NCBI GenBank assembly: GCA_048886185.1
Contig: JBHLKY010000018.1
Span: forward strand, 51,251-83,250
Reading direction: 5' to 3'
Source: Candidatus Hermodarchaeota archaeon
GTDB taxonomy: Archaea; Asgardarchaeota; Heimdallarchaeia; Hodarchaeales; Hodarchaeaceae
Length of the DNA stretch: 32,000 nt
The translations under genes and the position numbers were made by a program. Numbering within the stretch: the first letter of the stretch is position 1; the number at the start of each line of letters is the position of its first letter. Shown in pieces: positions 4,873 through 27,752 of this stretch. The notes below the pieces were generated by a model. It saw only the letters and a program-made list of their open reading frames with translations. It was not told the origin of the DNA and made no database searches.

Positions 4873-7359
4873 ATGAAAACGACAAAAAATACATTTTTAG
4901 GATTTTCCATAATATTAGGTTTTTTATTATTCTCTTCAATTGTTTCGTCTGGATTGGGACAAGTTCCAGTAATTGAATTGGATAAGGATGCTACTTATTT
5001 CGTACCTACTAGTTTAAACGATGATTGGCTATATTATGTTAATCCTCCTGGTACTGACTTCAGAGGGTCAGAAATTTTATATAAAGGTATTTCAGGAACA
5101 CATAATGCAGAATATACTTATTTCTCAAACTACAACCAGTGGTCATATTCTTCCGTGAATTTAGAGAGAAACGAATTAGTTAATGATAATTTATTAACCA
5201 ACACAACTCGGTATGGTTACCATCCTTTCTTTAATCCAGAACCATATCCTCGTGCAGTACGAATTCAATCAACTTTCAATCCCATTTATGAGTACTCACA
5301 CAGAACTGCAATAAATCTTCATATGGGCTATTCATTCAGCTTCATGGCTGAAGCTTACACAACCTATTTCGGTTTTCTTGATACCAATGAACCTTTTCTT
5401 CTAGATATTCATATCTACGACTGTGATGCGGATGGAGGAATTCTGTTTCCTGAGGCATTCCCCTTAGAGGGGCACACGATTGGATATCTCGAGAAAAAAA
5501 TGACCTATCCGTTTATTCCACGAAATAATTCAGTAACTCCATTAAATTTCACCCTCTGGTTGGATCAAGGATCACTAGTTACATTGACTCCACATGCGTG
5601 GGAATATCCTGATTATCTACCTACATTAGATGTAAATCGTACTTATTCTGGAGAAATTGATCAAGGAAAATATATGGTACTCGAAGACAATGAAATTATT
5701 TACCCTGATAACGAGATATTCAGCATAAGAATGTTTAATCTAGAACTCGAGGAGGAAAAAAGCTATGAATTATTCGTTGATTTCATAGGCCTCGAAAGGA
5801 CAAGCTGCACTAGTGGTTACCCATTCATTTGGTTAGCAGCTGAACATATTGACATTTTTCCAAATTCAGCCTTTAATCAGAATGGGTACCGGTTTCGAGC
5901 CAAGAAAAATGAAAGTGCTACATTGATACTTTTCTCTCAAAGTTGGTCATCAGGAGAGTATACAATCTACTACCAGAATATTATGTATGAACCAGAGGTA
6001 ATTGAGGCCCATTCATTAACTTTTAATAGAAATATCGAGTTAGAGTACTATACTTACTACTATTTCACTTTAGATGCTCCACATATGCTGGCTGTGAACT
6101 ATTCTTATTATTTTTATTTTGACTTATACATTCGTGGCTCTCAACTAAATGAATGGATCTATGTTGACAATCAAAATTTCTTTAGTCCAGAGTATGGAAA
6201 CCTCGTAGGAGACTGGGTAGAAGATATCGGTAATAATTGGCGTTATTTTCCAGCAGGAACTTATGCAATTAGACCTAGTTGGTTTTGGTCATCTAGTGAA
6301 ATTCGTTTTACAAAGATTCCCATATTTTCACCTTCTACAGTTTCTGTAAACAAAAACAGTATTTTTGCCTTTGAAGTTCCTCTCACAAGAAACCGAATTA
6401 ATTTCATCAATATATCAACGAATGAGCAGGTTCTACCCAATCAGATAGTGAATTATGAGTATTCCTGGGTTGGAAAATATAATGAAATGATAAAAGACTT
6501 TTATTACTCTGGTAATGTATGGATTGGAAATCGAAATGACTCTGGGCAATGGGTAAAATGGGGATCTAACAATACTCTATTAGAGTCATTTTTACCAACA
6601 AGAGATTATGAAACTCCCATCTTACTGATCAGACCTTATTTGGCAGAAAATAGTACTGGCCATGTTCTATCCTCATTCATAGCGAGATTAACTGTTAGTA
6701 CTAATGTTCCAGACATTCAACATTACACATACAATTATTGGAATGCAATTGGTGCAGGATTCTTCATTCCCAAGGACATCATCTCATCTTCAACATCATA
6801 TACTATCAATGATGACGTGTACGCGGGATCTGAACACCTTTATGGCATCCCCTTATCCCTTCCTAGGTTTAGAATCTATAATATCACTGCTTCTTTGCTT
6901 GGTAATTTCAGTACAGGCTCCTCATTAGGGGTATTAAATGCTTCATTCGATGGGATGAACATCCATGGTGGAAATCTAAACAATCTGGCAATCTTTAATA
7001 CATTAGCTTCTGGTTATGATGGAACCAAACATTGGTATTCAGTACTCATTTTAACAGTTTCTACAAGATCATATCTATATCTTGACATTACACGAACACT
7101 TAACAACACATCTTACAGAAATGCTACTCTTAAGATCTATATAAGAGAAGTTACTAGAACTCCTTTAGACATTGATATTCCCCCTTACATATACAATTCA
7201 ACACGACTTATAGAAGAGATTCGTAAGGACGAGATGTTGGCTTCTCAAATCTTAGCCCCTGAAATGAAGAAACCCACTCCTGGATTTGAACTAATCTTCA
7301 CATTGGGCACCATTGTAAGTATTGCTAAAGTCTTTTCTTATAAACGTAGAAAGAAATAA
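4873..7359 (+). CDS. secreted cell-surface glycoprotein with PGF-CTERM-like sorting signal
   Basis: N-terminal signal peptide (MKTTKNTFLGFSIILGFLLFSSIVSSG). Body is beta-rich and Y/N/S-rich with many N-x-S/T sequons. C-terminus is TPGFE, a hydrophobic helix, then KRRKK. Confidence 0.8.
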   Translation: MKTTKNTFLGFSIILGFLLFSSIVSSGLGQVPVIELDKDATYFVPTSLNDDWLYYVNPPGTDFRGSEILYKGISGTHNAEYTYFSNYNQWSYSSVNLERNELVNDNLLTNTTRYGYHPFFNPEPYPRAVRIQSTFNPIYEYSHRTAINLHMGYSFSFMAEAYTTYFGFLDTNEPFLLDIHIYDCDADGGILFPEAFPLEGHTIGYLEKKMTYPFIPRNNSVTPLNFTLWLDQGSLVTLTPHAWEYPDYLPTLDVNRTYSGEIDQGKYMVLEDNEIIYPDNEIFSIRMFNLELEEEKSYELFVDFIGLERTSCTSGYPFIWLAAEHIDIFPNSAFNQNGYRFRAKKNESATLILFSQSWSSGEYTIYYQNIMYEPEVIEAHSLTFNRNIELEYYTYYYFTLDAPHMLAVNYSYYFYFDLYIRGSQLNEWIYVDNQNFFSPEYGNLVGDWVEDIGNNWRYFPAGTYAIRPSWFWSSSEIRFTKIPIFSPSTVSVNKNSIFAFEVPLTRNRINFINISTNEQVLPNQIVNYEYSWVGKYNEMIKDFYYSGNVWIGNRNDSGQWVKWGSNNTLLESFLPTRDYETPILLIRPYLAENSTGHVLSSFIARLTVSTNVPDIQHYTYNYWNAIGAGFFIPKDIISSSTSYTINDDVYAGSEHLYGIPLSLPRFRIYNITASLLGNFSTGSSLGVLNASFDGMNIHGGNLNNLAIFNTLASGYDGTKHWYSVLILTVSTRSYLYLDITRTLNNTSYRNATLKIYIREVTRTPLDIDIPPYIYNSTRLIEEIRKDEMLASQILAPEMKKPTPGFELIFTLGTIVSIAKVFSYKRRKK

Positions 7360-10073: not shown

Positions 10074-10791
10074 GATTTTCACCTATTACTGCAAAATAAA
10101 CATCTTCTAATGAAGAAGTTCTTAATTTCGTCTTTATCTGGGAAATTTTCCCCTCACAAAGTATCTCACCTCTGTTAATAAGTGCGATAGAGTCACATAC
10201 TTTTTCTGCTCTAGTTAAAAGGTGAGTCGTCATAAATATAGTTGTATCCTCCTTTTTCAACTTATGGATCATATTTATAACTTCTTTTGCCATTAAAGGA
10301 TCAAGACCTGATGTTGGTTCATCTAAAAAAAGGATTTTAGGATTATGCATCAAGGCTCTAGCTAAATTTACTTTCTGTTTCATACCTTTTGATAGAGTAG
10401 AAATAGGAACATTTTTCTTCTCCCAAAGATCGAAAAAATCAAATAATTCCTCAATTTTTCCTTTTCTGTCACTTTTACTAATTCCATACAGACTTCCAAT
10501 AAAATTAAGATTTTCATTAATTGTTAAACTAGGATAAAGTCCAGCATCCTCTGGTACATAACCTATCAATGGTCTAATCTTTAATCCCTCTGTTGTAACA
10601 TCATATCCCGCAACGATCGCTTTACCGTATGTAGGCGATAGTAATGTTACAAATATATTCACAGTGGTAGTTTTTCCAGCACCATTAGGACCAAGATAGG
10701 CAAAAACTTCACCTACTTCAACATGAAAATTGATATCTTTTAACGCACTGAAGCCATTGAATTTTCGGGTTAGGTGTTGTGCTTTAATCAA
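10066..10791 (-). CDS. ABC exporter ATP-binding protein
   Basis: Walker A GPNGAGKT, signature LSKGMKQK, Walker B LFLDEP, H-loop TTH. TTG start with AGGTGA upstream. Confidence 0.95.
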   Translation of the reverse strand: MIKAQHLTRKFNGFSALKDINFHVEVGEVFAYLGPNGAGKTTTVNIFVTLLSPTYGKAIVAGYDVTTEGLKIRPLIGYVPEDAGLYPSLTINENLNFIGSLYGISKSDRKGKIEELFDFFDLWEKKNVPISTLSKGMKQKVNLARALMHNPKILFLDEPTSGLDPLMAKEVINMIHKLKKEDTTIFMTTHLLTRAEKVCDSIALINRGEILCEGKISQIKTKLRTSSLEDVYFAVIGENHD

Positions 10792-10814
10792 TTTTTGTGT
10801 TCACCTAGTTTGAC

Positions 10815-10855
10815 TGTTAACTATTTCTAACATCATGTTAACTATTTCTAACATC
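10815..10855. promoter_or_regulatory. tandem palindromic operator (2 x TGTTAACTATTTCTAACATC) upstream of the ABC/XRE operon
   Basis: Perfect 20-bp direct repeat at 10815-10834 and 10836-10855. Each copy contains TGTTA-N8-TAACA. It lies just downstream of a minus-strand TTTTAAA box (10865-10859). Confidence 0.7.
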
Positions 10856-10973
10856 CTCTTTAAAAGCTTTGTTTCATGGAAAAAAGAGGGTATTAATTGT
10901 ATTCTAGACTGATTTTTTGTACAGAAAACATGGATTTAGGGAAGAAATGGGTAATGAGAAATGTTATGAAACA

Positions 10974-11282
10974 ATGACTGTGAACAAAAGTGAATCTGAC
11001 TACCAATGATCAGATGCTTGGTTATTAATGGCTGTGGTAATTGTTCAAGGATTAATATCTTCTACAAAACGCCATTCAGAAGATGTTGATTCAAGTAATA
11101 AGGTTTATCAATATGAAAACATTCAAAGAATTCTAGAAGCTGGAGATTTCATGAATCATGCAATATTTACAAGTAAGGAACTGAAAAGAGGGATAAATCG
11201 ACTTTTAGAGAGTGGATATATATAAATTATCAATAAAATGATTATACCAAGCGTTAGTACTCTTTCTTGGTGTAGTGTGTAA
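10974..11282 (+). pseudogene. pseudogene of a small conserved hypothetical protein
   Basis: One frame from ATG 10974 to TAA 11282, broken by TGA (11007-11009) and TAA (11223-11225). Reads YQ*SDAWLLMAV...GDFMNHAIFTSKELKRGINRLLESGYI*, matching a remembered W-S-D-A-W-L-L...NHA family pattern. Confidence 0.5.
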
Positions 11283-11333
11283 TCCTCATGGCATAAATTT
11301 ATCTGAACTGTGTTAAAAAAGGTGGAGGAGCTA

Positions 11334-11942
11334 TTAAGAAGGTATTGATTTTGTCTTATATTTTGTCCAAGATGTCAGCAAGGGAGCCCGTTGGTTTTTT
11401 TCTATGAACTTCACAACATTAGATCCAAGTAATGAGAAAGCTTGAGGTATCTGTTCCCCAGTTTTTGCAGAAGTTTCAATGAAATGACATTTAAAGCCAT
11501 CAGGCTCAGTAAGGTTAGTAAGGTTCTTAGTAAAGGACCTGCCTTGGCTTGGAGATATATTATTATCTATTTTATCACGTAAATCGATTTTGTTTCCAAC
11601 CACAACAATCGGTACGCGACCACGTCCATTATTAGTCCATAGTTCATTAATCCATTTTGGCATATTATAAAATGATTCGGGACGAGTGATATCATACACT
11701 AATAAACCTCCAACACAACCATTGTAATATGCCTCTCGAACCCCATCAAAACGTTGTTGACCAGCAAGATCCCAAATTTGGTAACGGACTGGAAAACCAG
11801 CAATACTGTCATCACGCATGGCGAAATCTGCACCAACTGTCAATAGATATTGAGCGTTAAATCCGTGACCGATATAGCGTTCCCTAATGGCTGTTTTACC
11901 AACTCCACCATCTCCAATTAACGCGAGCTTATATACCGTCAT
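11334..11942 (-). CDS. Rab-like small GTPase (Ras superfamily, Asgard type)
   Basis: G1 GDGGVGKT, G2 YLLTVG, G3 WDLAGQ followed by RF, G4 NKID, G5 ETSAK. No C-terminal Cys prenylation motif. Confidence 0.93.
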   Translation of the reverse strand: MTVYKLALIGDGGVGKTAIRERYIGHGFNAQYLLTVGADFAMRDDSIAGFPVRYQIWDLAGQQRFDGVREAYYNGCVGGLLVYDITRPESFYNMPKWINELWTNNGRGRVPIVVVGNKIDLRDKIDNNISPSQGRSFTKNLTNLTEPDGFKCHFIETSAKTGEQIPQAFSLLGSNVVKFIEKNQRAPLLTSWTKYKTKSIPS

Positions 11943-12249
11943 TTTTCATCTCTCAACATAAACCAGTAGATTTTCGTCGGGAAAGATTGGGAAGAATCCT
12001 TTTTTAGCTCTTCCCCGTTTTAATAGATATTACCAGCACGTAGCCATAGAAAACACGCTTTAATAAAGTAATAAGTTACATAAATATGACAACTTCATTC
12101 GACAAGTGACAGAATTGATTTTTTGTCTTTATTTCACTGATCGCATTTTCCAAGTCCTCATACGAAATATTTCTCCATAATTATATTTAGCGAATACTTC
12201 GAAATTCAAAACGATTAAAGACATATAAAACTGGTAGGGTCTTTTAACT

Positions 12250-13023
12250 GTGCTTAAATGCTTCAATGGAAGTGAAATGAGACTGGCTTTAAATCAAATA
12301 TTGTCAGAAAATGTTTTATTACATATTCTTTTTAGTTCTGTTTCTGGATTGCTGCTATGTGGGGCTGGAGGAGTTGTTCTATCACGAGATAAAAGTGCAC
12401 GATTGAATAAAATGTTTTTAGGATTTTTCATGGGAATTGGTTTGCATCAATTATTAGATGCTTTAATGACATATTTTTTATTTGGTCCAAAAAACACTAA
12501 TATCGCAAATATCGTTAGGGAATTTTCCATTATCTCACTAATTCTTGGATTAAGCTTTGGATCCCTAGTAGCACTAAATTTATATTATAAAGAGACTCTC
12601 TTTACACCTACAAAACTCCTAATATGGGCTACTTTAACCGTTGTATTAATATTATTTGGAATCATTGGTGATTATGTTACTTTGGGCGGGTACTATGGAG
12701 ACCAACCTAGTAAAACACGAGAAATCTTAGGATGGATTGGTATTACTGGATCAATTCTCATCTATTCAGGAATTATTGTATTTTTCTTACTTCTACTAAT
12801 GAGAGAAGTTGTGGATACCAAGGTTCAGAAAAAAATTATTGGAATAACAGTAGGATTTATTTTGATCAATCTAGTAGTTTTTTTATTTGATATTTCATTT
12901 GCTTTTCAACTGTTTAAAGAAGTCATCTCAGAACCAATCTTCCATCTTTTAGTTCATTCTCTAGCTCTTCTAGGTGGAATAATCACTATTACTGTCCTTT
13001 GGTCTCCTATATCTTCTTCCTAA
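12250..13023 (+). CDS. stand-alone seven-transmembrane protein (HisKA_7TM/7TMR-like sensor module)
   Basis: Seven hydrophobic segments by eye; the protein ends right after TM7 with no cytoplasmic output domain. TATAAAA at 12224-12230 fits a leaderless GTG start at 12250; ATG 12277 is an alternative. Confidence 0.65.
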   Translation: MLKCFNGSEMRLALNQILSENVLLHILFSSVSGLLLCGAGGVVLSRDKSARLNKMFLGFFMGIGLHQLLDALMTYFLFGPKNTNIANIVREFSIISLILGLSFGSLVALNLYYKETLFTPTKLLIWATLTVVLILFGIIGDYVTLGGYYGDQPSKTREILGWIGITGSILIYSGIIVFFLLLLMREVVDTKVQKKIIGITVGFILINLVVFLFDISFAFQLFKEVISEPIFHLLVHSLALLGGIITITVLWSPISSS

Positions 13024-13703
13024 AATCCGAAAACCTTGGCAGTCTTTATAGTTCGGTCAAGATACTGAATTAATTTCATTAATGGGTCTTTAAGTGATTG
13101 ATGAATATATCCAGAGTCAATAAACGTTCGTAACACATCAATCTTATTTTGAATGAGTTCAGGATCCTTAGCAGTGAACCCCTCTCCAAAAATTCTCTCT
13201 GCAATTACTTTTGGAGTAACTTTCATACTTTTAAGTTCCTCAATTATGTCTTTAATGAAAGTGAGCTCTTCTGCAGAACTAATTTCTCCATCTAGCTGTA
13301 CTCCAAATCGTAAAAGAATAGAATTCATCAACTGGTCGACCTCATTGGTTTCCGAAGCCTGTAATGGAAAAATTACACGAGACTCCATTTCTAGCGAAAG
13401 CTGCATAAACTGAGACGAACTTGTTAGATGATCAAAAAAACTAGCTATAATGCCTTGATTAATAGCAGATTTGAGACCTAAGATTACTATTAAGAAATTG
13501 TATCTATTGAAATAGAACAACATATCCTGTAATCCAATAGAAGATAATTCTGACCCCAACTCCTTAGAAAAAGCTAAAATAGCTGCAATAAATCCTGAGA
13601 AGAGGTTTTCATCAACTGTTTCTTTAATAAAGGACTTTTTATAAACTATAAGTCCACTTGGATGGATCATAATTATTGAATGAATAGGAAAATCTATAGA
13701 CAA
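13020..13703 (-). CDS. longin-like domain protein with C-terminal helical extension
   Basis: N-terminal IHSIIMIHPSGLIVY...DENLFSGFIAAILAFSKELG...I is the typical Asgard longin/roadblock-like signature. TTG start with GTGGT upstream. The stop overlaps the convergent 7TM gene by 4 nt. Confidence 0.7.
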   Translation of the reverse strand: MSIDFPIHSIIMIHPSGLIVYKKSFIKETVDENLFSGFIAAILAFSKELGSELSSIGLQDMLFYFNRYNFLIVILGLKSAINQGIIASFFDHLTSSSQFMQLSLEMESRVIFPLQASETNEVDQLMNSILLRFGVQLDGEISSAEELTFIKDIIEELKSMKVTPKVIAERIFGEGFTAKDPELIQNKIDVLRTFIDSGYIHQSLKDPLMKLIQYLDRTIKTAKVFGF

Positions 13704-13824
13704 ATGTTGACACCACAGAAATTGTTCAAGAGGAATCTTATGTTATTATAATATAGTTGATGTTTGCAATATTAGAATAAAAAAATTACTCCCAAGTTCC
13801 CTTTCAGTTGTTTTGATATTCCTC

Positions 13825-14166
13825 TTAATTATGGAGCTTATCTAAGGTCTCTTTTGCCTGTGGAATGTTTAATTGTTTCCATAGGGCTTCTAATTTGTCA
13901 GTACAGGGATAATCATTACACTCAGCACAAGTAGTTAATCCTTTCCCCATGCTACAATTTCTTACAGCACATTGAGAGCAATGAAAGAAGTTATTCTCGC
14001 TAGCATGACACCCATCACAATTAATTTGATCAGGGTTAACTACAAATCCTTCACCTGACCATTGCTTAGCAGTTTTTTCCCTTAGAACTTGGTTATTTGT
14101 TTGTTTCGCGATGAATGCTGGGCACTGTTCACAATTCAATCCACAGTAAGCAATCATTTCTGTCAT
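13825..14166 (-). CDS. DUF3795 cysteine-rich protein
   Basis: IAYCGLNCEQCPA...CDGC...CSQCAVRNC...CAECNDYPC cysteine pattern. Confidence 0.88.
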   Translation of the reverse strand: MTEMIAYCGLNCEQCPAFIAKQTNNQVLREKTAKQWSGEGFVVNPDQINCDGCHASENNFFHCSQCAVRNCSMGKGLTTCAECNDYPCTDKLEALWKQLNIPQAKETLDKLHN

Positions 14167-14408: not shown

Positions 14409-15473
14409 ATGACACCTACTAATGATGAAAACGATTTAACAGAAGACGAGAGAACAGTTTTATGGATTATCAGTGAGCTCCAAACGAGAGATAAGGATCC
14501 TAAAACAAATGAAATAACTATTTCTGAGAATTTAAAGATCACTCTTACAAGAGAAGGAATTAAGAAACTTAAAACGATCTCAGAAAAGAATATTGATTCA
14601 GATTCTGCAATCAATACCTTAATTGCAAAAGAACTAATATTTATTGATGGATCTGAACTCAAACTCACCGAAGTTGGGATAAAAATTGGAAAAGTAATCC
14701 GCTCTAAACAAATGAGTAATTGGTATAATGATAATCTAATTAGGTGCGCCACAAGTAAAGCTTACGCCCTTTTCTGTGAGAAAGTATTTGGAAAGAATCT
14801 TTTACAGTTCAATGTTCTGGATATGGATCAATTAGAAAAACTCATATCGTCATTAAATCTGAATTCCAACGATTCGGCTTTAGACCTAGGATGTGGTTTA
14901 GGAAAAATAACAGAGTACATTCATAAGAAAACGGGTGCTAAAATTATTGGGGTCGATTTTGCTGAACATCTTATCCATTGGGCAAGAGAAAACACAGTTA
15001 CAAATGATAATATGTTGGTATTTCAAGTAGGAAATATTAATGAACTGATTTTCCCCCGATCATCCTTTGATGCTATTTTTGCAATAGACACTCTCTATCC
15101 AACTAATGTAGATAACCTAGAAGTAACTATAGCTAGATTAAAAGAACTTTTAAAACCAAAGGGGCAGTTGGGGATATTTTTTGCCCAAATCATAGAATCC
15201 GAAGAACAAAAACATGCGGTAGAACCTAATCAGACCAAAATGGCCCTGGCTTTGAGAAATAATAATTTAGATTATACAGTAATTGATTTTACTCAAAATG
15301 CAAGGGATATATGGCAACGAGAAATTACTTTCGCGACTGAATTACAAGAAATGTTTGAGAAAGAAGGTAATCTCGATCTTTGTGAGGACAGGATAGCTGA
15401 TGGAAAGAGATGTATTCAGAGAATCGATAAACAACTGCAAAAAAGATATTTTTATCATGCTTCAGGTATTTGA
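14409..15473 (+). CDS. class I SAM-dependent methyltransferase with N-terminal winged-helix-like domain
   Basis: Motif I LDLGCGLG, post-II GVD, FDAIFAIDT, LKPKGQL. The N-terminal ~100 aa end in LIAKELIFIDGSELKLTEVG, a wing-like pattern. Confidence 0.8.
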   Translation: MTPTNDENDLTEDERTVLWIISELQTRDKDPKTNEITISENLKITLTREGIKKLKTISEKNIDSDSAINTLIAKELIFIDGSELKLTEVGIKIGKVIRSKQMSNWYNDNLIRCATSKAYALFCEKVFGKNLLQFNVLDMDQLEKLISSLNLNSNDSALDLGCGLGKITEYIHKKTGAKIIGVDFAEHLIHWARENTVTNDNMLVFQVGNINELIFPRSSFDAIFAIDTLYPTNVDNLEVTIARLKELLKPKGQLGIFFAQIIESEEQKHAVEPNQTKMALALRNNNLDYTVIDFTQNARDIWQREITFATELQEMFEKEGNLDLCEDRIADGKRCIQRIDKQLQKRYFYHASGI

Positions 15474-15574: not shown

Positions 15575-15626
15575 TTTTTATATGAGACAAAAATCTTCGG
15601 ATTATATTCAATTTTACAAGAGAGGT
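15575..15626 (+). promoter_or_regulatory. TATA box and ribosome-binding site of the glycyl radical enzyme operon
   Basis: TTTTTATA at 15575-15582 and GAGGT at 15622-15626, 9 nt before GTG 15636. Confidence 0.5.
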
Positions 15627-15635
15627 AGACCTTAA

Positions 15636-18122
15636 GTGACAGAATCACTAGCATTTGAACAGCGTGAAATTGTCAAACAACCTTCTACGGTAAGAATTCG
15701 ACAATTACGTGATACTTATTTATCAGAACCATTAATGATCGATCCTGAGTATATTTATCGCTATATGGAAGCTCATCGTAAAACTGATGAAATGAATGTT
15801 CTGGAAAGAAGAGCTGAATGTCATGCTTATGCTTTAGAGAATATAACACCAGTTATAAGAGACAATGAGCTTATTGTTGGAAGTAAAACTAGATTTATTC
15901 GTGGGGCTATTCCTTACTGCAATTATGCTTCTGATTTCATCCGGAGAGTTTTTGAAAAAGAACAACAGGAAGCTCAGGATAGTGTGACAGATTTAGGAGA
16001 GGGAGGTGGAATTGCTAAAGGAAGGGAACTTGCTCAATCAGGAGACTTTGAGATATTTTCACATAAATTTCTAATTTCAAAAAATGACAAAGAACAACTG
16101 AAAGAATGTGCAGAATATTTTAAAGGTAAGAGTATGCAAGACATGGGTGATGCTTTATGGAAAACAACTTTTTCTGAAGCAAATTACATAGAAAAAGGTT
16201 GGGAAGCAGTATTATACACAGCTCCCCATGATCCAGCTCCTGAAGGAAGATATGTTCTTGATTACGAAACAGCATTAAATGAAGGTTTCTTAAAGATTAT
16301 TGATAGAATGCAAAATAATATCTTAAAAACACGAATTACTGACTACAAATCAGCAGAAAAAGTATATTTCTGGCGAGCTGGAATAAGAGTTCTAGAGGCT
16401 ACAATTAATTGGGCTGATAATTATGCTAAAGAAGCAGAAAGATTAGCACAAATGGAAGTGGATCCAAAAAGAAAAGAGGAATTATTAATAATTGCTAATC
16501 ATTGTAAATGGGTACCAAAAAATCCACCAAGAAACTTTAAGGAGGCTGTACAAGCTTTTTGGTTTATCTACTTAGCTGGTCATATTGAGGGAGCTCATCT
16601 TGGGTATTCACCTGGAAGATTCGATAGATATATGTACCCATTCTATAAAGAAGATACTGAAATTTCTGACGATGATGTACTGGAGCTACTAGAAGCTTTA
16701 CGCATAAAAATGACAGAAATTGAATATGTGGCTTCATTCTCATGGGAGGGACTCGGATCAGGAAATTTATTTCAAAATATGATTATTGGAGGGACAGATA
16801 AAAATGGAAGAAGAGGTGATAACGAAATATCAATGTTAATTTTACAAGCAGCTATAAATTGCCAAACAATACAACCAACTTTATCAATATGGTATGATGA
16901 TTCTCTTAGTGAGGAATTTCTTTTAAAAGCTGTCGAATGTGTGAAAACTGGATGTGGTTTCCCCGCTTGGTTTAATCTCAAAATCTATATCCAACATGAA
17001 TTACAAAAATCTGGATTACCAGTTCCTGTTATTAGGAAATATGCTGCTATGGGAGGCTGTACCGAACCAACCATAGAAGGGATGAGTTATGGAATTGTTC
17101 AACCAGGATTTATTAATCATGGGAAATTACTTGAATTAGCAATGTATGGGGGAAAAGATTTACGTACAGGATTGCAATTCACTGAAACAAAGATCCCTCA
17201 AAACTATAAAGAAGTGATTGAAGCTTATAAAACTCATTTAAAAGTATCTATTCAGAATTGGCAATCTTACTGGAACATCGTTATGGCCGCTCATCGACAG
17301 ACCTGTAATCTAATTTACTCTTCTGTTTTAATCCAAGATTGTGTAGAAAGAGGTTTATCTCTTGATGATGGTGGTGCAATTTGCAATGAAGTACCGACTA
17401 CTCTTTCAACAGGCATGGTAAATGTTGCAAATTCTCTTGCTGCAGTAAAAAAGCTTGTAGAAGATCAAAGACTGTATACAATGGCAGATGTTATAGAAGC
17501 TTGTAAAAGTAATTTTAGCAACAATGATGAAATGAGAAGAAAGGCCCTTGATGCTCCTAAATGGGGTAATGATGATGATTATGTGGATGAGATTTTTATC
17601 GATCTTTTTAATACCTACTGTGATTTTGTAAAGAATGGGATAAATTACCTAGGTAAACCATACGATCCATCAATGTTGGCAATTAGTACCCATACACCAT
17701 TTGGGAAAGTAACAGGAGCAACACCTGATGGTAGACTATCAGGAGTATCATTATGTGATGGAGTAACTTCACCATTCCCTGGAACTGACACCAATGGACC
17801 AGTTGCTACAATCTTATCAGCAGCGAAAGTTGACCATACTAAAATACGAGGTGGACTTCACAATATGAAATTCCATCCTAGTGCTCTAAAAGGAATTTCA
17901 GGTTCACAAAAATTAATTTCCTTGATTAAAACATATTTTGATTACCTTGGTTTTCAATTGCAATTCAATGTAGTTGATACCAAGATGTTAAGGGATGCTC
18001 AAAAGAATCCAGATAAATATCGTGATTTAATAGTCAGAGTTGCTGGATTTAGTGCTTTCTTTGTTGAATTAAGTAAGTCTATTCAAGACCAAGTTATCGA
18101 AAGAACAGAGTTAATGCTTTGA
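15636..18122 (+). CDS. glycyl radical enzyme, arylacetate-decarboxylase (HpdB-like) clade
   Basis: Glycyl loop RVAGF (G804), thiyl loop GGCTEP (C475, E477), PKWGNDD, TPDGR. Segments KTRFIRG, GEGGG, PEGR, SGNLF and QPTLSIWYDDSLSEEFLLKAVEC resemble remembered HpdB segments. Confidence 0.9.
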   Translation: MTESLAFEQREIVKQPSTVRIRQLRDTYLSEPLMIDPEYIYRYMEAHRKTDEMNVLERRAECHAYALENITPVIRDNELIVGSKTRFIRGAIPYCNYASDFIRRVFEKEQQEAQDSVTDLGEGGGIAKGRELAQSGDFEIFSHKFLISKNDKEQLKECAEYFKGKSMQDMGDALWKTTFSEANYIEKGWEAVLYTAPHDPAPEGRYVLDYETALNEGFLKIIDRMQNNILKTRITDYKSAEKVYFWRAGIRVLEATINWADNYAKEAERLAQMEVDPKRKEELLIIANHCKWVPKNPPRNFKEAVQAFWFIYLAGHIEGAHLGYSPGRFDRYMYPFYKEDTEISDDDVLELLEALRIKMTEIEYVASFSWEGLGSGNLFQNMIIGGTDKNGRRGDNEISMLILQAAINCQTIQPTLSIWYDDSLSEEFLLKAVECVKTGCGFPAWFNLKIYIQHELQKSGLPVPVIRKYAAMGGCTEPTIEGMSYGIVQPGFINHGKLLELAMYGGKDLRTGLQFTETKIPQNYKEVIEAYKTHLKVSIQNWQSYWNIVMAAHRQTCNLIYSSVLIQDCVERGLSLDDGGAICNEVPTTLSTGMVNVANSLAAVKKLVEDQRLYTMADVIEACKSNFSNNDEMRRKALDAPKWGNDDDYVDEIFIDLFNTYCDFVKNGINYLGKPYDPSMLAISTHTPFGKVTGATPDGRLSGVSLCDGVTSPFPGTDTNGPVATILSAAKVDHTKIRGGLHNMKFHPSALKGISGSQKLISLIKTYFDYLGFQLQFNVVDTKMLRDAQKNPDKYRDLIVRVAGFSAFFVELSKSIQDQVIERTELML

Positions 18123-19075
18123 TGACATTGATACCAGATAATAAAAGTCCATTATCCTTCAAAAATGAAGAAACAATAATTTTTAATATACAAGATTATT
18201 GTGTGGATGATGGGCCAGGAATAAGGACAGTGATCTTTTTTAAAGGCTGTTATCTTCGATGTCATTGGTGTTCAAACCCAGAAAGTCAATTATTTGAGCC
18301 AGAAATTTTTTACTCGGGACTAAAGTGCAAAAAATGTAGAAAATGTGAAAAAACATGTCCAAATTCCAGTATTGATTTTTCTAATATAGAATTCCCACTT
18401 TTTAACAGAAATATTTGTTCAATCTGTGAATCAAAGATTTGTACTAAGGTGTGTCCTGAAAATGCTTTAAGAACTGTTGGTTACCCTATTACAGTTTTAG
18501 ATTTACTTAAGAGAGTAAAAAAGAATTCATTATTATTCAGGAATTCCGGAGGTGGGATTACTCTCTCAGGTGGTGAACCACTGGCTCATATAGCCTTTAT
18601 TAGGGAATTCTTAAAGAAAACTACGGCATTAGGATTTTCTGTTGGGATAGAGACTTGTGGTTTTTTTAATTGGCAAAGGGTGATCGATATTATACCAAAT
18701 ATTGATTTTTTCTTTTTTGACTTGAAGATTATGGATTCAAAATTTCATAAAGCATTAACAGGGGTAAATAATGATAAGATTCACTTAAATCTTAAAAAAT
18801 TAAGTCAAACTGAGGCCAAAAAAATTACTATTTCTATCCCAATTGTTCCAGGTATTAATGATTATCTAGAAAACATTAAAAAAACCGTTAATTTATGTAC
18901 AGAATTTGGAATCAAAAAAATTCGGTTTCTAAAGTATCATGAATGGGGAAGAGGTAAATATGAAGAATTGGGTCGTCAATATTTGCTAAATGAAAGAATG
19001 AAACTACAAGAAAATGATCTTAAAACCTTTGAAAAATTGGCTAAAGAAGCTGGTCTACAAGTTACTATTATTTAG
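18122..19075 (+). CDS. glycyl-radical enzyme activating enzyme (radical SAM with 2x[4Fe-4S] insert)
   Basis: DGPGIRT, CxxxCxxC (GCYLRCHWCSNPE), ferredoxin-like inserts CKKCRKCEKTCP and CSICESKICTKVCP, GITLSGGEP. ATG overlaps the GRE stop (TGATG). Confidence 0.93.
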   Translation: MTLIPDNKSPLSFKNEETIIFNIQDYCVDDGPGIRTVIFFKGCYLRCHWCSNPESQLFEPEIFYSGLKCKKCRKCEKTCPNSSIDFSNIEFPLFNRNICSICESKICTKVCPENALRTVGYPITVLDLLKRVKKNSLLFRNSGGGITLSGGEPLAHIAFIREFLKKTTALGFSVGIETCGFFNWQRVIDIIPNIDFFFFDLKIMDSKFHKALTGVNNDKIHLNLKKLSQTEAKKITISIPIVPGINDYLENIKKTVNLCTEFGIKKIRFLKYHEWGRGKYEELGRQYLLNERMKLQENDLKTFEKLAKEAGLQVTII

Positions 19076-19079
19076 CATA

Positions 19080-19111
19080 TACCAACCTTTTTTTTGAAGA
19101 ATGTGTTGGTA
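19080..19111 (+). terminator. putative terminator (T8 tract inside an inverted repeat)
   Basis: TACCAAC...GTTGGTA arms enclose a run of 8 T, immediately after the activase stop. Confidence 0.35.
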
Positions 19112-19331: not shown

Positions 19332-22300
19332 TTACTTTAGAAGATCACTAGTGCCATAAATTTTTTCATAAGCTAAGATAATTTTTGAGATTAATTTCCT
19401 GATATCAATAATCTTTACTATGATTGTACCTTTCTCTGAATTTTCATTATTCATGAGCTTGTGAACAACATCTACTTTTTCACGAATCTCGTCAAGAAAT
19501 TGAACAATTAATGGAAATACATCTTGATATATCAAAATATTTAATGTTAAGTCCTCTTTACCTCCCCTTGCTTGAGGCCGCTGTAGAGTAAAACCAAAAC
19601 AGAGGGATTTTAGAAGAAGGTTTTTTGATAATAGAAAGTCAAAATTTGAAGTCATTTCTCCCTCAAAGTCTTGAATATCACCTATTACACCAAAAGATCT
19701 GTCAGACAATTCGATTAATTTGGAAAGATTATCCTTTAATATTTCGGGGATTATGATAATTGGAATTGGGCCACGTCGCTGATCAAAAAAAGCTATAACT
19801 ACCCCGATTGTATGAATATCTAGAAATTCAAATGCTTCCGTTTCGCTAACTTCAGAGATTTGATTAAGTACTAATTCTTTATCCAAACCAATCAATTCTG
19901 GTTTCCTAAAGATCCTGAGGTAGATAAGTGATCCAAAAATCGTTGAGGCAATTGAGATCCCAAAAATCATCACAATAATTATCGGATCAAATAGCCTTGT
20001 CTCTTTTTCAAAATGAAATTCTTTTATTCTATCTGGATCATTAAGTATATTATAAGTAATCCCCGTATTTCCACTGCTATCAGTTGTTTCAATATAGAAT
20101 ATTATTGCTTTAGATGTATTATTATGCTCAAATGGAATAGTTACTGAATAACTATGAATATCATTAGTCATATTGACCGAGAGGAGTGACATCTTTGCAG
20201 CTTGCCAATTAGGATTGCCATTTTGCTGAAAACTAGCTTTAATACCTAATAATGTTATTTTAGTTTCTGTTATTTCTCTAAAATAATAGTAAAGAAATAC
20301 TTCTTCAATTTCAGATCCATAATCGATAATATTTGAAAGAAATGTTATATTAGTAGGATTAATGTAATCATTAAAGCCAATAGTTGGATTCCCTACAACA
20401 CGGGGCGGACTTTTGTCTTCTACATGAAATGAAAAGGTAAAATCAACATATATCATATATTCCTTATCGTTATAATCTAGAAAACAAGCCGCTTTTACTT
20501 TGGTTATGAGAGTTTTCCCTAGATAATTATCATAAAACTCGTTTAAGGGTAGATTATAATCTAAAATCCATATTGAATCGTTAATTGGACTTCTTTGAGC
20601 ATAATAAATTATTCCTGAGGAATCATTAATCAAGAATTCTACTGTAACAATTGGATTGAGACTGTAAGTAACCACTTGAAATTCATATCTTCCTTCATCA
20701 AGGTAAATACCATTATCATCGATTATTACAGGTTGCACATTGCAACTCAGAATGTATGGACGACTTTCGACATAAATCACTTTCAGATTCACACTTTTTC
20801 CTAGATCTGTGCCATCAAAAGGAGTTATTTTACATTTCCAGTACTCTCCTGGTGATGTTTCAGATGATGGTATGAATGTTTTATTTTGAGAAGCGAAAAC
20901 TTCCTCCCATTCACTAGTTTCTAATCGGCAGAACCATTGAATCTTTGATTGGTCAGTATCTATTGGTTGATCGCTATCCTCAAACTCATAAAAAAGTGAA
21001 ATAATTTCATCTTCAATAAAAAAAACTTGTCCCACCAACGTAGATCTTATTTCTGGGATAATATGACTACAACTTGAATTAAAGATATATGAATAATTGT
21101 ACACCCTAGGGGGAACATTAAGGATGAGGATAGCTCTTGAAGTTTGCTCAATTCCATAATTTAGTCCATCCTTTGGTTTAACTGTAACAAACCAACGATC
21201 ATTTTTTACCAAATAAGTGGCTGGTACTTGGTGAGAATCATTATGGAGGGGTTGTAAAACGTCGTTTTTATACCAGCGTATTTCAGTCCCTCCTTCACTA
21301 TCACCATCACGATCATAAAAACTATATTGGACATAAAGAGTATCATTACTACGAATAAGAGCTTCAAAACGATCTTTATTACTTGAAAGTTGTAGCTCTG
21401 TAATTTCAGGGTAATGATTTGGTACACTTGAAATTATTTCATTAGATGTTCCTATATTCTCTTCTGTATCATTAGCAATTATAACATAGTGAAAAATGCC
21501 TTGACTTATCATCAAAGCATTAGTCATATATCCATTACTGGAATTTTCCATCACACACCATAATTTATTTTGTGGAACACCAGCAGCAAAAGTAATATTG
21601 ACAATGACAGTATCTACTTCCCCCCAAGGGTCGCTTACATTTACTTTGAAGGTTCCGTTTTCCCCAAGTGTTGGATAATAGACTGGAGTACATATAACAG
21701 GAGTAATAAAGTCCTTGTCAAATGAATAATACTTGATATTTGAAGGAGAGTCAATATAATTCCCATTGGAATCTGAAGAATTTGTAATTTGAAATTGATA
21801 ACATCTCTTATACAAAACTAGGGTTTTGTATAACCAATATGATCCGTTATTCATCATTGAAAATTCTGTGCCATTAATTGAGATGTGTACTGTATCCACA
21901 CTAGATAAGACATCTCTAATATCAGCCCAAAATATGCCTGTACCATTCCCCAAATCATCTACTCCATGGTCAATAATTAATGGAGGATCTGTATCATATA
22001 TTTGGGTAAAATTAACTTCAGCCCAGACTTCAGAACACCAACATTCTCTATCTTGTTGTGGTAACGCTCGTAACATTACCCCTATCTCCATTGTATTCAC
22101 TTCATCCCACGTCCATTTTGATGAAGTATTGGGATTAGTCGGGTAATTCGTAGAATGATTATTCCAGTTGTCTGAAGGTTCATTCAACGATCCAAGGAAT
22201 TTTTTATCGTATGTACGTAATACTGTGCAGGCTCGAGCATTAGTAAATGATATACTAGTTCGAACGCGAATATTTAATGTTACAGAGTTGATAATACCTG

Positions 22301-22733
22301 AAATACCAGTAATATTTTGAGATTGATATGTATCTGTGTACGAAGTGGCTGTAGAATAATCCTCAATAATAAAAGAACTGTCATTATTATCTGAGACAAC
22401 TTGCCAATGAATAACTCCTAAAGGAATTTCAGAAGGAATTTCTGTTATAGTGCCATTACTAATAGGTTTTAATACTGTTAAATTGAAGTTACTAGCTAAT
22501 TTATAACTAGGTTTCTTTCTAGCGGACGAATTTAGACAATTATTTCTCAATTTGGGTATAAATTGATAAAATTCTTGTTTATATCCATTCAAAATAGCTT
22601 TACAGCAATTATATCCAGAATTGACATTCAAAGATTCAAATGTTTCAGTGCAAAGTGGAAAGAAGAAGAATGTTATGTTTGTCATAGTACCAATAATTAG
22701 AAGAGATATGACAATTTTTTTGAGATCCTCCAC
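19332..22733 (-). CDS. large single-pass cell-surface protein: signal, Ig-like repeats, TM helix, cytoplasmic longin/uDENN-like domain
   Basis: GTG start with GGAG upstream and hydrophobic N-terminus. Repeated D.xPP-started beta modules and two D.DGD.E...I.W...V.P.DG repeats (aa 440-656). TM at aa 918-940. Cytoplasmic tail contains FDQRRGP and QARGGKE. Confidence 0.8.
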   Translation of the reverse strand: MEDLKKIVISLLIIGTMTNITFFFFPLCTETFESLNVNSGYNCCKAILNGYKQEFYQFIPKLRNNCLNSSARKKPSYKLASNFNLTVLKPISNGTITEIPSEIPLGVIHWQVVSDNNDSSFIIEDYSTATSYTDTYQSQNITGISGIINSVTLNIRVRTSISFTNARACTVLRTYDKKFLGSLNEPSDNWNNHSTNYPTNPNTSSKWTWDEVNTMEIGVMLRALPQQDRECWCSEVWAEVNFTQIYDTDPPLIIDHGVDDLGNGTGIFWADIRDVLSSVDTVHISINGTEFSMMNNGSYWLYKTLVLYKRCYQFQITNSSDSNGNYIDSPSNIKYYSFDKDFITPVICTPVYYPTLGENGTFKVNVSDPWGEVDTVIVNITFAAGVPQNKLWCVMENSSNGYMTNALMISQGIFHYVIIANDTEENIGTSNEIISSVPNHYPEITELQLSSNKDRFEALIRSNDTLYVQYSFYDRDGDSEGGTEIRWYKNDVLQPLHNDSHQVPATYLVKNDRWFVTVKPKDGLNYGIEQTSRAILILNVPPRVYNYSYIFNSSCSHIIPEIRSTLVGQVFFIEDEIISLFYEFEDSDQPIDTDQSKIQWFCRLETSEWEEVFASQNKTFIPSSETSPGEYWKCKITPFDGTDLGKSVNLKVIYVESRPYILSCNVQPVIIDDNGIYLDEGRYEFQVVTYSLNPIVTVEFLINDSSGIIYYAQRSPINDSIWILDYNLPLNEFYDNYLGKTLITKVKAACFLDYNDKEYMIYVDFTFSFHVEDKSPPRVVGNPTIGFNDYINPTNITFLSNIIDYGSEIEEVFLYYYFREITETKITLLGIKASFQQNGNPNWQAAKMSLLSVNMTNDIHSYSVTIPFEHNNTSKAIIFYIETTDSSGNTGITYNILNDPDRIKEFHFEKETRLFDPIIIVMIFGISIASTIFGSLIYLRIFRKPELIGLDKELVLNQISEVSETEAFEFLDIHTIGVVIAFFDQRRGPIPIIIIPEILKDNLSKLIELSDRSFGVIGDIQDFEGEMTSNFDFLLSKNLLLKSLCFGFTLQRPQARGGKEDLTLNILIYQDVFPLIVQFLDEIREKVDVVHKLMNNENSEKGTIIVKIIDIRKLISKIILAYEKIYGTSDLLK

Positions 22734-25151: not shown

Positions 25152-26201
25152 ATGCAAGTAATACACGAAAAAAAAAATGAGTTGATTTTTGAGATGGTAT
25201 TTCAAGAATTCGCTCAAGAAATATATCCAGAAGTGATTACTGGAAAAGATCTTTATTATATGCTAAAACTAGCTTCCCAAAAGCTAGAAAAATATATTGA
25301 GATACTTAATGACATAAATGTATTTCCTGTACCAGATGGAGATACAGGAATTAACATGCACCAAACTTTTCAATCTATTATCAGGGAATTGAATAATTTA
25401 GAATTTTATGATCATTGTGGAAAAATTATTTGTTCTGCAGCAAAAGGAGCTTTTTTTGGCAGTATTGGTAACTCTGGTATAATTCTAGCTGAATATTTTC
25501 GTGGACTAGAACAAGAATGGAAAAATTCATGTACTATTGACGGAAAACTATTTTCTAGAGGCTTATTTGCAGCAGCAAAATATGCTTACCAAGCTGTTGA
25601 AAAACCTAGAGAGGGAACTATTCTTACAGTTGGAAGAATTATAGCAGAGACAGCAGATGAATGGATTAAGACAGTAACAAATCCTTTTGAATTATTGTTT
25701 ATTGTTTTTGAGGAAGCTAAAGCAGCTTTATTAAATACACATAGAATTTTACCGGAAGCAAATGTTGCAGGGGTTGTTGATGCTGGAGCAATTGGCCTAG
25801 TGCTAATGTTTGATGGATTTATCGAAGCTATGGTTAATAAATATCCATCTAGTGCTCTCCCATTATATACAATTGATGATGACCTAGCTCCTTTTTTGAA
25901 GCTAAAAATTGATTTCTCACTAATTAAGCATGAGTTTGAAGTAATCTTTAAAATCTCTGGTTTAAAGAAACCTATGGATAATCTTAAAGTTGAACTAAAA
26001 AAAGAAGGATCTTGTCTTCTAATTATTAGTAATGATTCAGTTTCTGAAATTAAAGTTCATATCCACTGTACAGATCCTGATAGAGTTATATCGAAAGTAA
26101 AAGATTTTGTAAGCCATATAGAAGTAGATTCAATTAAATCACTAAATGAACAAAATTACCAACTGTCAAAGCGTATCAAAATGAAAAATGGGAGTGAATG
26201 A
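25152..26201 (+). CDS. fakA: DAK2-domain fatty acid kinase catalytic subunit (FakA/YloV-like; N-terminal and middle domains only)
   Basis: LNDINVFPVPDGDTGINM, GNSGIIL, KPREGTILTV, GVVDAG, middle-domain IKVHIH. At 349 aa it lacks the C-terminal DegV-like domain of full-length FakA. Confidence 0.85.
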   Translation: MQVIHEKKNELIFEMVFQEFAQEIYPEVITGKDLYYMLKLASQKLEKYIEILNDINVFPVPDGDTGINMHQTFQSIIRELNNLEFYDHCGKIICSAAKGAFFGSIGNSGIILAEYFRGLEQEWKNSCTIDGKLFSRGLFAAAKYAYQAVEKPREGTILTVGRIIAETADEWIKTVTNPFELLFIVFEEAKAALLNTHRILPEANVAGVVDAGAIGLVLMFDGFIEAMVNKYPSSALPLYTIDDDLAPFLKLKIDFSLIKHEFEVIFKISGLKKPMDNLKVELKKEGSCLLIISNDSVSEIKVHIHCTDPDRVISKVKDFVSHIEVDSIKSLNEQNYQLSKRIKMKNGSE

Positions 26202-27094
26202 ACACGAAAATAGGCGTTGTAACTGACAGTATGTGTGATTTACCATCAAGCACTTCTGAAAAATATGGAATTATAGTTGTCCCAGGTATTGTATATGTTA
26301 ATGGAAATCCCTTCCATAGTGGTGTGGATATTCATCCTGAAGATATCCAAACCATAATAGAAGACAAAGAGAAAAAAATTCAAACAGGAGCACCATCTCC
26401 TGCTGCTTATTATATGGCCTACGAGAATCTATATGATAAGGTAGATATTATATTAAGTTTACATTGCCCTATCAAACATTCAGGAGTGTTGAACGCAGCC
26501 AAAGCAGGTGCAAGACGTTTAGAAGACTCATCTCGGGTTGTTCACTTTGAGTGTGGAGTCGCGACTATTGGTTTAGGAATTACAGCTGTAGCAACAGCAA
26601 TCAAATCACAACAAATCGAAACTAAACAGGAATTAATACGTCTAGTTCAAGAGTATTGTACAAAGATCCAGATAATAGGAACCCTAGAGTCCTTTAAATA
26701 TCTTCAAAGAAGTGGTAGATTAGGCCTAAAAGTTGCGGGTTGGATTGCTAGTACTTTATCTATAAAACCTGTTCTTTTGATGAGAAATTCTGATATATTT
26801 CTGTTAAAAAAACCCCGAGATAGAAAGGTGGCTCTTAATCAGCTTATTTATAATCTATCTAAGAAGATCGATAAAGAAATTAATCCAAAAATTATTGGAA
26901 TTAGTCACTTCGGATGTGAGGGAGAATTAAATGAAATAGAAAAGAAAATAAAAGGAATACTGCCAAATCATATGATTATTAGAGGTTATGCAGATCCAAT
27001 GGTTGCTGCTAATACTGGACCAGGATTAGTATTAATAGCCTACTTCGCTAATTTTATGGATAATTTAGATAATGGAATAAAAATAAATGCTTGA
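26198..27094 (+). CDS. fakB: DegV family fatty acid-binding protein (FakB-like)
   Basis: VVTDSMCDLP, QTGAPSP, HSG, YLQRSGRL, LSIKPVL, NTGPG. ATGA overlap with the fakA stop. Confidence 0.9.
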   Translation: MNTKIGVVTDSMCDLPSSTSEKYGIIVVPGIVYVNGNPFHSGVDIHPEDIQTIIEDKEKKIQTGAPSPAAYYMAYENLYDKVDIILSLHCPIKHSGVLNAAKAGARRLEDSSRVVHFECGVATIGLGITAVATAIKSQQIETKQELIRLVQEYCTKIQIIGTLESFKYLQRSGRLGLKVAGWIASTLSIKPVLLMRNSDIFLLKKPRDRKVALNQLIYNLSKKIDKEINPKIIGISHFGCEGELNEIEKKIKGILPNHMIIRGYADPMVAANTGPGLVLIAYFANFMDNLDNGIKINA

Positions 27095-27752
27095 AATCAT
27101 ATTTTCAGGAATATTTGGCTACTTAACAGGATCAATTTTCATTTCTTATTATTGGGGAAAAATAAATGGTATTGATTTAACAAAAGAGGGGACAGGGCAA
27201 TTAGGCGCATCGAATACAGGTCGAAACTTGGGATGGCCTGCTATGGTAGTAGTTGGGTTATTTGATATATTAAAAGCCACAATTACTCTTACAATCTTGC
27301 ATTTCTTTTTCAATCATATGGTTCCTTCTCCCCATTATGAAGTTTTATTAATAACTGGCAGTTTAGGGATTGTTTTAGGCCATATAAAATCCTTATGGAT
27401 TTGGTTAGAAAAACATGATTGGTATGGAGGAAAAGGAGGTGCACCCTTTGGAGGAATTCTTTTGTTTCTATCATTGGAAAGCTTCATTATTTTATATGTT
27501 GTATTAATGGTTTTTCTGCAACTACTAAAGCTGTTTATATTGAAAGGAGGATCATATGATAACTTCTCAACAAATGTTATTGTTGTTTTATTGTCTCCTT
27601 TTGTCATTCTTTGGTTTACAGGAAAAATTTTATACTTCATTTTAGTACTCCTAATAATTGGTACAATCATTTTCTTTGAAAGGGAGAAAATCGCTAGTGT
27701 ACTCACGATTACATTATTAAAGGGATCTAGAGAAGCAATAGACGAATCATAA
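27087..27752 (+). CDS. plsY: PlsY-family acyl-phosphate:glycerol-phosphate acyltransferase (divergent)
   Basis: GYLTGSI, GTGQLGASNTGR (motif 1), DILK, LGH...GGKG (motif 2), multiple TM helices. Overlaps fakB by 8 nt. Motif 3 is divergent. Confidence 0.85.
   Translation: MLEIIFSGIFGYLTGSIFISYYWGKINGIDLTKEGTGQLGASNTGRNLGWPAMVVVGLFDILKATITLTILHFFFNHMVPSPHYEVLLITGSLGIVLGHIKSLWIWLEKHDWYGGKGGAPFGGILLFLSLESFIILYVVLMVFLQLLKLFILKGGSYDNFSTNVIVVLLSPFVILWFTGKILYFILVLLIIGTIIFFEREKIASVLTITLLKGSREAIDES

Follow-up and report, generated by a model that had tools for sequence, protein, structure and literature searches.

We analyzed a 32,000-nucleotide stretch of contig JBHLKY010000018.1 (the window, to which all coordinates refer) from the genome of a Candidatus Hermodarchaeota archaeon, and describe a two-gene cassette on its forward strand that encodes a glycyl radical enzyme (GRE) and the enzyme that activates it. 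The GRE gene is an uninterrupted open reading frame (ORF) of 828 amino acids with a GTG start codon (15636-18122, + strand). It is followed by the gene for a GRE-activating radical S-adenosylmethionine (SAM) enzyme of 317 amino acids, hereafter the activase (18122-19075, +). The TGA stop codon of the former (18120-18122) has its A in common with the ATG start codon of the latter (18122-18124), and translation of the activase could alternatively begin at the TTG at 18119. The overlap at 18122 therefore leaves no space for a gene in between, as an earlier, preliminary description of this locus had pointed out. The 5' leader (15605-15635, +), delimited by the alignment of upstream regions, blastn borders and the sequence itself, carries a TTATTCAA box about 30 nucleotides upstream and a Shine-Dalgarno-like GAGAGGT box before the GTG start. 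Directly 3' of the activase stop, a run of eight T (19088-19095, +) looks like a putative archaeal terminator.

The first gene product has the features of the GRE superfamily, namely a PFL-like barrel (PF02901, E 2.8e-159), a Gly_radical domain (PF01228, E 2e-29), an RVxG motif, a mid-protein cysteine (GGC at residues 473-475) and an adjoining radical SAM activase. Its Cys loop GGCTEP spans residues 473-478 and contains C475 (codon 17058-17060) and E477 (17064-17066). The radical motif RVAGF spans residues 801-805 (RVAG 801-804), with G804 (18045-18047) as the radical glycine; these and all codon positions given below are on the + strand. The activase has Pfam Radical_SAM and Fer4 domains, a CX3CX2C motif at C43/C47/C50 and two ferredoxin-like four-Cys motifs (C69-C79 and C99-C111). 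It matches the generic GRE activase model TIGR02494 at 303.7 bits (cut-off 174.35), and scores under the cut-off of every substrate-specific activase model. In comparison with congeners, the GRE had a ratio of nonsynonymous to synonymous divergence (dN/dS) of 0.07-0.09 and the activase one of 0.14-0.22; both cassette genes are under purifying selection.

Family placement and comparison with known decarboxylases

The family of the GRE was assessed against references validated by curated cut-offs. These comprised indoleacetate decarboxylases (IADs), four of which scored 1556-1645 bits (from Clostridium and Syntrophomonadaceae genomes) and one 1188 bits (P0124), and 4-hydroxyphenylacetate decarboxylases (HPADs) taken from genomes (L034, L035 and P0138), which scored 1551-1725 bits with model NF033715. 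In the careful maximum-likelihood tree (supports are ultrafast bootstrap / SH-aLRT), the GRE falls into a monophyletic group of its own (100/99), hereafter the query clade, that is the sister of the IAD + HPAD superclade (100/99). HPAD, IAD and the query clade together make up a 27-row clade (100/99) apart from HypD and other dehydratase-type GREs, and a quick tree of 75 rows gave the same placement, both in the absence of PhdB and AAD sequences. By sequence, the GRE can thus be assigned to the arylacetate-decarboxylase superclade formed by HPAD, IAD and the query clade. In a search of 1.84 billion representatives of 50%-identity clusters, the whole clade was covered by a single representative (P0047, 67% identity), and the next neighbours were at most 45% identical.

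Among NCBIfam models, the best match of the GRE is IAD (NF033718, 813.8 bits), followed by HPAD (NF033715, 558.6 bits), and dehydratase and lyase models reach no more than 551 bits; the protein is 43% identical to validated IADs and 37% to HPAD. The preliminary description had presented it as an uncharacterised, HpdB-like arylacetate decarboxylase. Its membership of the superclade is borne out, and the enzyme does not group with CutC, HypD or IslA; the closest likeness, however, is to IAD rather than to HpdB. The catalytic and radical motifs listed there, including C475, E477 and R205 in a PEGR segment, are all present in the ORF.

Structure-based comparisons were less discriminating. The AlphaFold model of the GRE (pLDDT 86.3, pTM 0.90) was matched by Foldseek to all GRE classes alike (TM 0.85-0.92), with HPAD giving the top query-normalised TM-score (0.92) in a search set that held no IAD structure, and the fold match of this predicted model is uninformative about the substrate. 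By sequence, the best match in the same set was glycerol dehydratase (1r8w, 455.9 bits, versus 378.7 for HPAD), which reflects indels of HPAD and not kinship. AAD (PDB 7E7L) reached 309.4 bits, aligned only from residue 216 and ranked under about 20 other GRE structures, which speaks against a close relationship. A candidate stand-in for AAD (P0139) was rejected, having no match to 7E7L.

The four known systems differ from the cassette in distinct ways. With HPAD (HpdBC/CsdBC, PDB 2Y8N/2YAJ), the GRE shares the superclade, the CxE loop, the arginine at position 223 of HPAD (R205), the STH segment after the barrel and the active-site cap known as extension 1. In contrast to HPAD, it has no 17-residue insertion in the Cys loop and no HpdC, the Fe-S small subunit whose gene in HPAD loci lies between those of the large subunit and the activase. 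The HpdC model NF033716 gave no match in the 96%-complete host genome (4.84 Mb), whereas in two control genomes that encode HPAD it detected the subunit with scores of 80.7 and 86.4 bits (cut-off 50); in the L034 and L035 loci, a Cys-rich HpdC ORF of 89 amino acids stands directly after HPAD. The predicted lack of a small subunit thus holds at the locus and genome-wide. With IAD (known from Olsenella uli, O. scatoligenes and Clostridium scatologenes), the GRE shares the single-subunit organization followed by a dedicated three-cluster activase, the CxE loop, extension 1 and most of the pocket residues described below. However, two segments of IAD are missing from it, namely extension 2 (approximately 20 amino acids, at position 627 of the query) and some 17 residues of the N-terminus (the ‘seatbelt’), and the query clade branches outside IAD + HPAD. 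The hosts differ as well, since IAD is found in gut Clostridia and Coriobacteriia, and the query clade in sediment and groundwater bacteria, Asgard archaea and protists. PhdB and AAD are likewise single-subunit GRE arylacetate decarboxylases, each with its own activase, and both are reported to be devoid of the IAD/HPAD extensions (PMC13232127). The Cys loop of PhdB is CxQ and not CxE, with Gln484 essential, in addition to His327, Tyr691 and Trp495 (PMC7079210); compared by this description rather than by alignment, it differs from the C-T-E loop of the GRE, which is found in all 119 clade members. By the defining features of each, as read from sequence, the GRE is neither HpdB, nor IAD, nor PhdB.

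Related proteins of anaerobic protists (Paratrimastix pyriformis, Pelomyxa schiedti and Hexamita inflata) are annotated as HPAD-activating enzyme fusions. Their GRE part is 57-64% identical to the query, lies inside the clade and has the same CTE...QxGF motif; in contrast to the archaeal cassette, GRE and activase form one polypeptide, and the fusions make up subclades of their own that are not sisters of the Asgard copies. Reportedly, Nyvltova et al. in 2017 traced p-cresol production in Mastigamoeba to a laterally acquired enzyme. This production by the archamoeba, reported for M. balamuthi, has been ascribed to a laterally acquired enzyme of the fusion type (PMC8136499). We also observed a GRE-activase fusion of 1186 amino acids (P0278, on a 26-kb ENA contig) that groups with unfused clade members and not with the eukaryotic fusions; judging by its sequence, there may have been several independent fusion events, or the fusion may date back to bacteria.

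The nearest outgroup GRE (P0123 clade, L017:2171-11578) is 45% identical to the query and lacks the Trp/Phe/Gln pocket signature. Its neighbours encode a molybdopterin oxidoreductase, amine-oxidase-like flavoproteins and a UbiD decarboxylase, and the locus represents a different, likewise uncharacterised GRE system.

Substrate pocket and predicted reaction

In the IAD of O. uli (OuIAD), Arg226 stacks on the indole ring, Trp392 gates the channel, and the hydrophobic pocket is formed by Phe401, Phe517, Leu616, Leu730 and Ile731; His514 bonds the indole N-H, and Cys500 and Glu502 perform the chemistry (PMC13232127). In our alignment, these correspond to R205 (codon 16248-16250; Arg226), W370 (16743-16745; Trp392), F379 (16770-16772; Phe401), C475 (Cys500), E477 (Glu502), F492 (17109-17111; Phe517) and L590 (17403-17405; Leu616), and the segment LAIS aligns with LSIS of IAD. 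Scored over 119 clade members, R205, W370, F/Y379, C475, E477, F492, L590, L681 and I683 are invariant or nearly so. The one clear exception is the position of His514, which is taken by Q489 (17100-17102). Since the H514A variant of OuIAD had a 66-fold lower kcat and a 70-fold higher Km (PMC9248008), this position is functionally important.

The comparison with real HPADs (L034, L035 and P0138) confirmed that both phenol ligands of HPAD are replaced, as the preliminary description had proposed: the motifs VGVHFI and NVETCG/NIETCG align with QPGFI and TTLSTG of the GRE, respectively, so that His536 becomes G491 (17106-17108) and Glu637 becomes L590. The same two positions are changed alike in IAD, to Ala/Gly and Leu. 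Because IAD has these replacements and a polar glutamine is conserved in the clade, the pocket differs from that of HpdB but is essentially IAD-like, and not simply larger and apolar. The two replacements do not define a new pocket. An invariant glutamine at a heteroatom-binding position would favour a ring with N-H or O-H.

We interpret the locus as a self-contained two-gene cassette that probably encodes a glycyl radical decarboxylase of arylacetates working without a small subunit, together with a dedicated activase, and we assign this sequence-based reading a probability of roughly two thirds. Arylacetate decarboxylation through a Cys thiyl radical and a CxE motif is the best reading because the GRE is the sister of two CxE-type decarboxylases, retains the residues for the carboxylate, the ring and the gate, and stands alone with its activase. 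We deduce the type of reaction from what the sister clades do and from the pocket, and propose the residue roles by homology to the cryo-EM structure of OuIAD and the crystal structure of CsHPAD; the substrate is likewise argued by analogy. The glycyl radical would generate a thiyl radical at C475. In analogy to IAD and HPAD, the substrate carboxylate would lie beside this residue, and E477 would serve, within the CxE motif, as proton relay. R205 would stack on the aromatic ring within a hydrophobic pocket of F379, F492, L590, L681 and I683, W370 would gate the substrate channel, and the invariant Q489 would form a hydrogen bond to the heteroatom of the ring (the O-H of a phenol or the N-H of an indole). 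The predicted products are CO2 and a methyl-arene. By analogy, the most likely substrates are 4-hydroxyphenylacetate, giving p-cresol, and indole-3-acetate, giving skatole; the former is favoured because eukaryotic GRE-activase fusions annotated as HPAD fall inside the clade, and the latter by the likeness of the pocket to that of IAD.

The host genome encodes candidate enzymes for arylacetate supply. The alpha subunit of indolepyruvate:ferredoxin oxidoreductase was detected at 658.1 bits (cut-off 650.9), along with four ACD-like homologues of ADP-forming acyl-CoA synthetases and 13 paralogs of aldehyde:ferredoxin oxidoreductase, one of them within the window. From this gene content, the organism can be predicted to make arylacetates in the archaeal way, by means of these three enzyme types.

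Several observations weigh against this interpretation. The best two NCBIfam scores remain under the curated cut-offs of 1100 for IAD and 1150 for HPAD. The residue at the IAD His514 position is glutamine in 119 of 119 clade members and histidine in all five validated IADs, and glutamine is unable to take the part of the base that is proposed to deprotonate the phenol in HPAD. As the clade possesses neither His514 and extension 2 of IAD nor Glu637, His536 and the small subunit of HPAD, either substrate assignment is an extrapolation. Genes for the metabolism or transport of aromatic acids showed no consistent linkage to the cassette across 18 clade loci. When the Pelomyxa fusion was used as a query, no match was named as a Mastigamoeba protein, and the Mastigamoeba enzyme is only a putative member of the query clade. 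Finally, we found in the literature no biochemical assay of any clade member.

These observations also bear on the alternative explanations. The enzyme could be an isofunctional IAD, that is, a skatole synthase in which the hydrogen bond of the indole N-H is accepted by glutamine in place of His514, as the Gln carbonyl could do. Such a role would agree with IAD as the best curated model (813.8 bits), the 43% identity to validated IADs, the retention of the pocket residues other than His514, the absence of a small subunit and the order of GRE and activase. However, the score fails the IAD cut-off, the clade is sister to IAD and HPAD jointly and not to IAD alone, the exchange of histidine for glutamine is fixed, extension 2 and the N-terminal residues are absent, and adjacent pocket positions are changed as well (T589 for Leu/Ile, S591 for Asn and A682 for Ser); we hold this possibility to be serious, although unlikely. 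In a second alternative, in line with the larger, apolar pocket and the volatile aromatic of the preliminary description, phenylacetate or another unsubstituted apolar arylacetate would be decarboxylated in an enlarged greasy pocket, with toluene or a similar hydrocarbon as the product. The small or apolar residues in place of the HPAD phenol ligands (G491 and L590) and the Phe, Leu and Ile lining of the pocket are in line with this view, which we nevertheless regard as improbable: IAD has the same Gly/Ala and Leu replacements and rejects phenylacetate (PMC6181972), an invariant polar Gln489 is unexpected opposite an unsubstituted ring, and PhdB, the only known phenylacetate decarboxylase, has a CxQ loop and is inactive as the Q484E variant (PMC7079210), whereas CTE is invariant in the clade.

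A different radical reaction, such as dehydration, C-N, C-S or C-O bond lysis or decarboxylation of a non-aromatic acid, would make the likeness to IAD a matter of mere ancestry. The higher score of glycerol dehydratase 1r8w, the failure of Foldseek to separate GRE classes and the lack of a linked aromatic-acid gene could be read in this way, and the neighbouring unassigned clades (P0123 and P0127-P0129) show how fast function may change. Yet the 1r8w score is due to HPAD indels, the trees group the clade with IAD and HPAD at 100/99, Arg205 and the aromatic and hydrophobic decarboxylase pocket are retained, and the top query-normalised TM-score belongs to HPAD, which makes a change of reaction more improbable still.

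If the enzyme is an arylacetate decarboxylase, a bolder and tentative proposal is that the clade adds to the known glycyl radical arylacetate decarboxylases a fifth class with a biochemistry of its own, without a small subunit and with glutamine for the His/Glu ligands. It may be the enzyme that actually forms p-cresol (or skatole) in sediment bacteria and anaerobic protists, and would provide the first archaeal GRE with an assignable function, on a 3.5-kb plug-in cassette that spreads across all three domains, including between Asgard classes. p-Cresol and skatole are bacteriostatic, signalling or malodorous volatiles, and a substrate assignment for the clade would show who makes them in anoxic sediments. 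Such an assignment would also offer a simpler one-subunit enzyme for methyl-arene production, and would probe the role of the Gln/His/Glu position in the disputed mechanism (Kolbe versus hydrogen atom transfer). According to a 2026 review (PMC13450708), the four characterised GRE arylacetate decarboxylases are all bacterial, and archaeal GREs and untested clades are the main gap. Our analysis adds an archaeal host, a sharp-edged mobile cassette with inter-class transfer, the sister position to IAD + HPAD, the missing extension 2 and the link to protist fusions.

Distribution and horizontal transfer

The query clade is large: the best 120 matches to the GRE, all at least 54% identical, span Ignavibacteria, Bacteroidota, Cloacimonadota, WOR-3, Acidobacteriota, Elusimicrobia, Synergistota, Asgard archaea and several anaerobic protists. 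A 90%-identical relative belongs to ‘Candidatus Hodarchaeum mangrovi’, and DNA almost identical to the cassette is present in sediment metagenomes. Altogether, seven of 301 Asgard genomes carry the cassette GRE: four of the 21 genomes of the host genus (including the host genome), a fifth genome that shares the class but not the family (89% identity), a sixth that belongs to a different class (92%), and a seventh with a more distant copy (76%).

The cassette is 3.46 kb long, with sharp borders and non-syntenic flanks. As determined by blastn, nucleotide homology to other Asgard copies extends from 16-31 nucleotides 5' of the start codon to 4 nucleotides 3' of the activase stop (15605/15620-19079), the leader homology starting at 15605/15620 in five other genomes. 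No convincing flanking repeats or att-like sites were found at the borders, and the flanks of the other Asgard copies map to unrelated contigs of the host genome. The copy from the different class (L114, G214:C1:281000-300999; cassette at 10331-13767) is located on a 388-kb contig and is 92% identical in amino acids and 90% in nucleotides. Its synonymous divergence (dS) from the cassette in the window is 0.35-0.42, whereas the flanking genes are 31-42% identical with saturated dS. The low divergence of the cassette between saturated flanks therefore indicates a recent horizontal transfer between Asgard classes, a clear case of recent gene exchange between the archaea most closely related to eukaryotes. 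Among four congeners, the cassette dS was 0.5-0.64, much like the 0.35-1.0 of the few neighbouring orthologs.

In a quick tree of 138 rows (with SH-aLRT support only), the Asgard copies are a single group nested in a bacterial subclade of 63 rows and separate from the clades of eukaryotes. On the basis of this tree, we rejected a sister relationship of the Asgard copies and the eukaryotic fusions, as expected for a vertical link to eukaryotes; because the two are not sisters, the acquisitions from bacteria by Asgard archaea and by eukaryotes were separate. As judged from these sequence comparisons, the cassette appears to have entered Asgard archaea once from bacteria and to have subsequently moved between Asgard lineages. 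Thus, the enzyme called archaeal in the preliminary description does have an archaeal host, of the order Hodarchaeales, but its clade is mostly bacterial and extends to anaerobic protists, with the archaeal copies as a horizontally acquired offshoot.

The host genome contains another GRE, of the HypD type (contig C15, L001:718-3867). Its homologues, of about 790 amino acids and with 33-36% identity to the query, were found in 9 of 40 related genomes, versus 3 of 40 for the decarboxylase cassette.

Gene neighbourhood and other features of the window

In an ORF clustering of 18 clade loci, as well as in nine annotated neighbourhoods, the activase is the sole recurrent neighbour of the GRE and is usually located directly after it. 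The upstream methyltransferase gene (14409-15473) and a DUF3795 gene were rejected as members of the unit. The latter lies approximately 1.5 kb upstream of the cassette (13825-14166, - strand). DUF3795 genes occur in two of the 18 loci, including a pair about 6 kb upstream of the homologue in Anoxybacter fermentans (L004:1432-2761), and their association with the cassette is probably due to chance.

Anoxybacter fermentans (CP016379) is the one cultured bacterial host, and at its locus (L004:11823-13942) the cassette is followed by BcrAD_BadFG and HGD-D genes and preceded by a gene for a pyridoxal phosphate-dependent enzyme. BcrAD_BadFG and HGD-D proteins are of the 2-hydroxyacyl-CoA dehydratase type, as in aryl-lactate pathways. 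This neighbourhood, a single locus, possibly hints at the fermentation of aromatic amino acids.

About 4 kb upstream of the cassette, the window encodes a small GTPase of the Ras/Rab family (11334-11942, -; PF00071, E 5.9e-41), which is among the eukaryotic signature proteins typical of Asgard archaea and supports the Hodarchaeales host. Two long ORFs have no Pfam match, one of 828 amino acids (4873-7359, +) and one of 1133 amino acids (19332-22733, -); the length of the former is equal to that of the GRE, which is a coincidence. Further downstream, co-directional genes for Dak2/FakA-like, DegV and PlsY-like (G3P_acyltransf) proteins (25152-27752) represent, by their domain content, a putative set for fatty-acid kinase and acyl-phosphate acyltransferase of the bacterial type, here in an Asgard archaeon.

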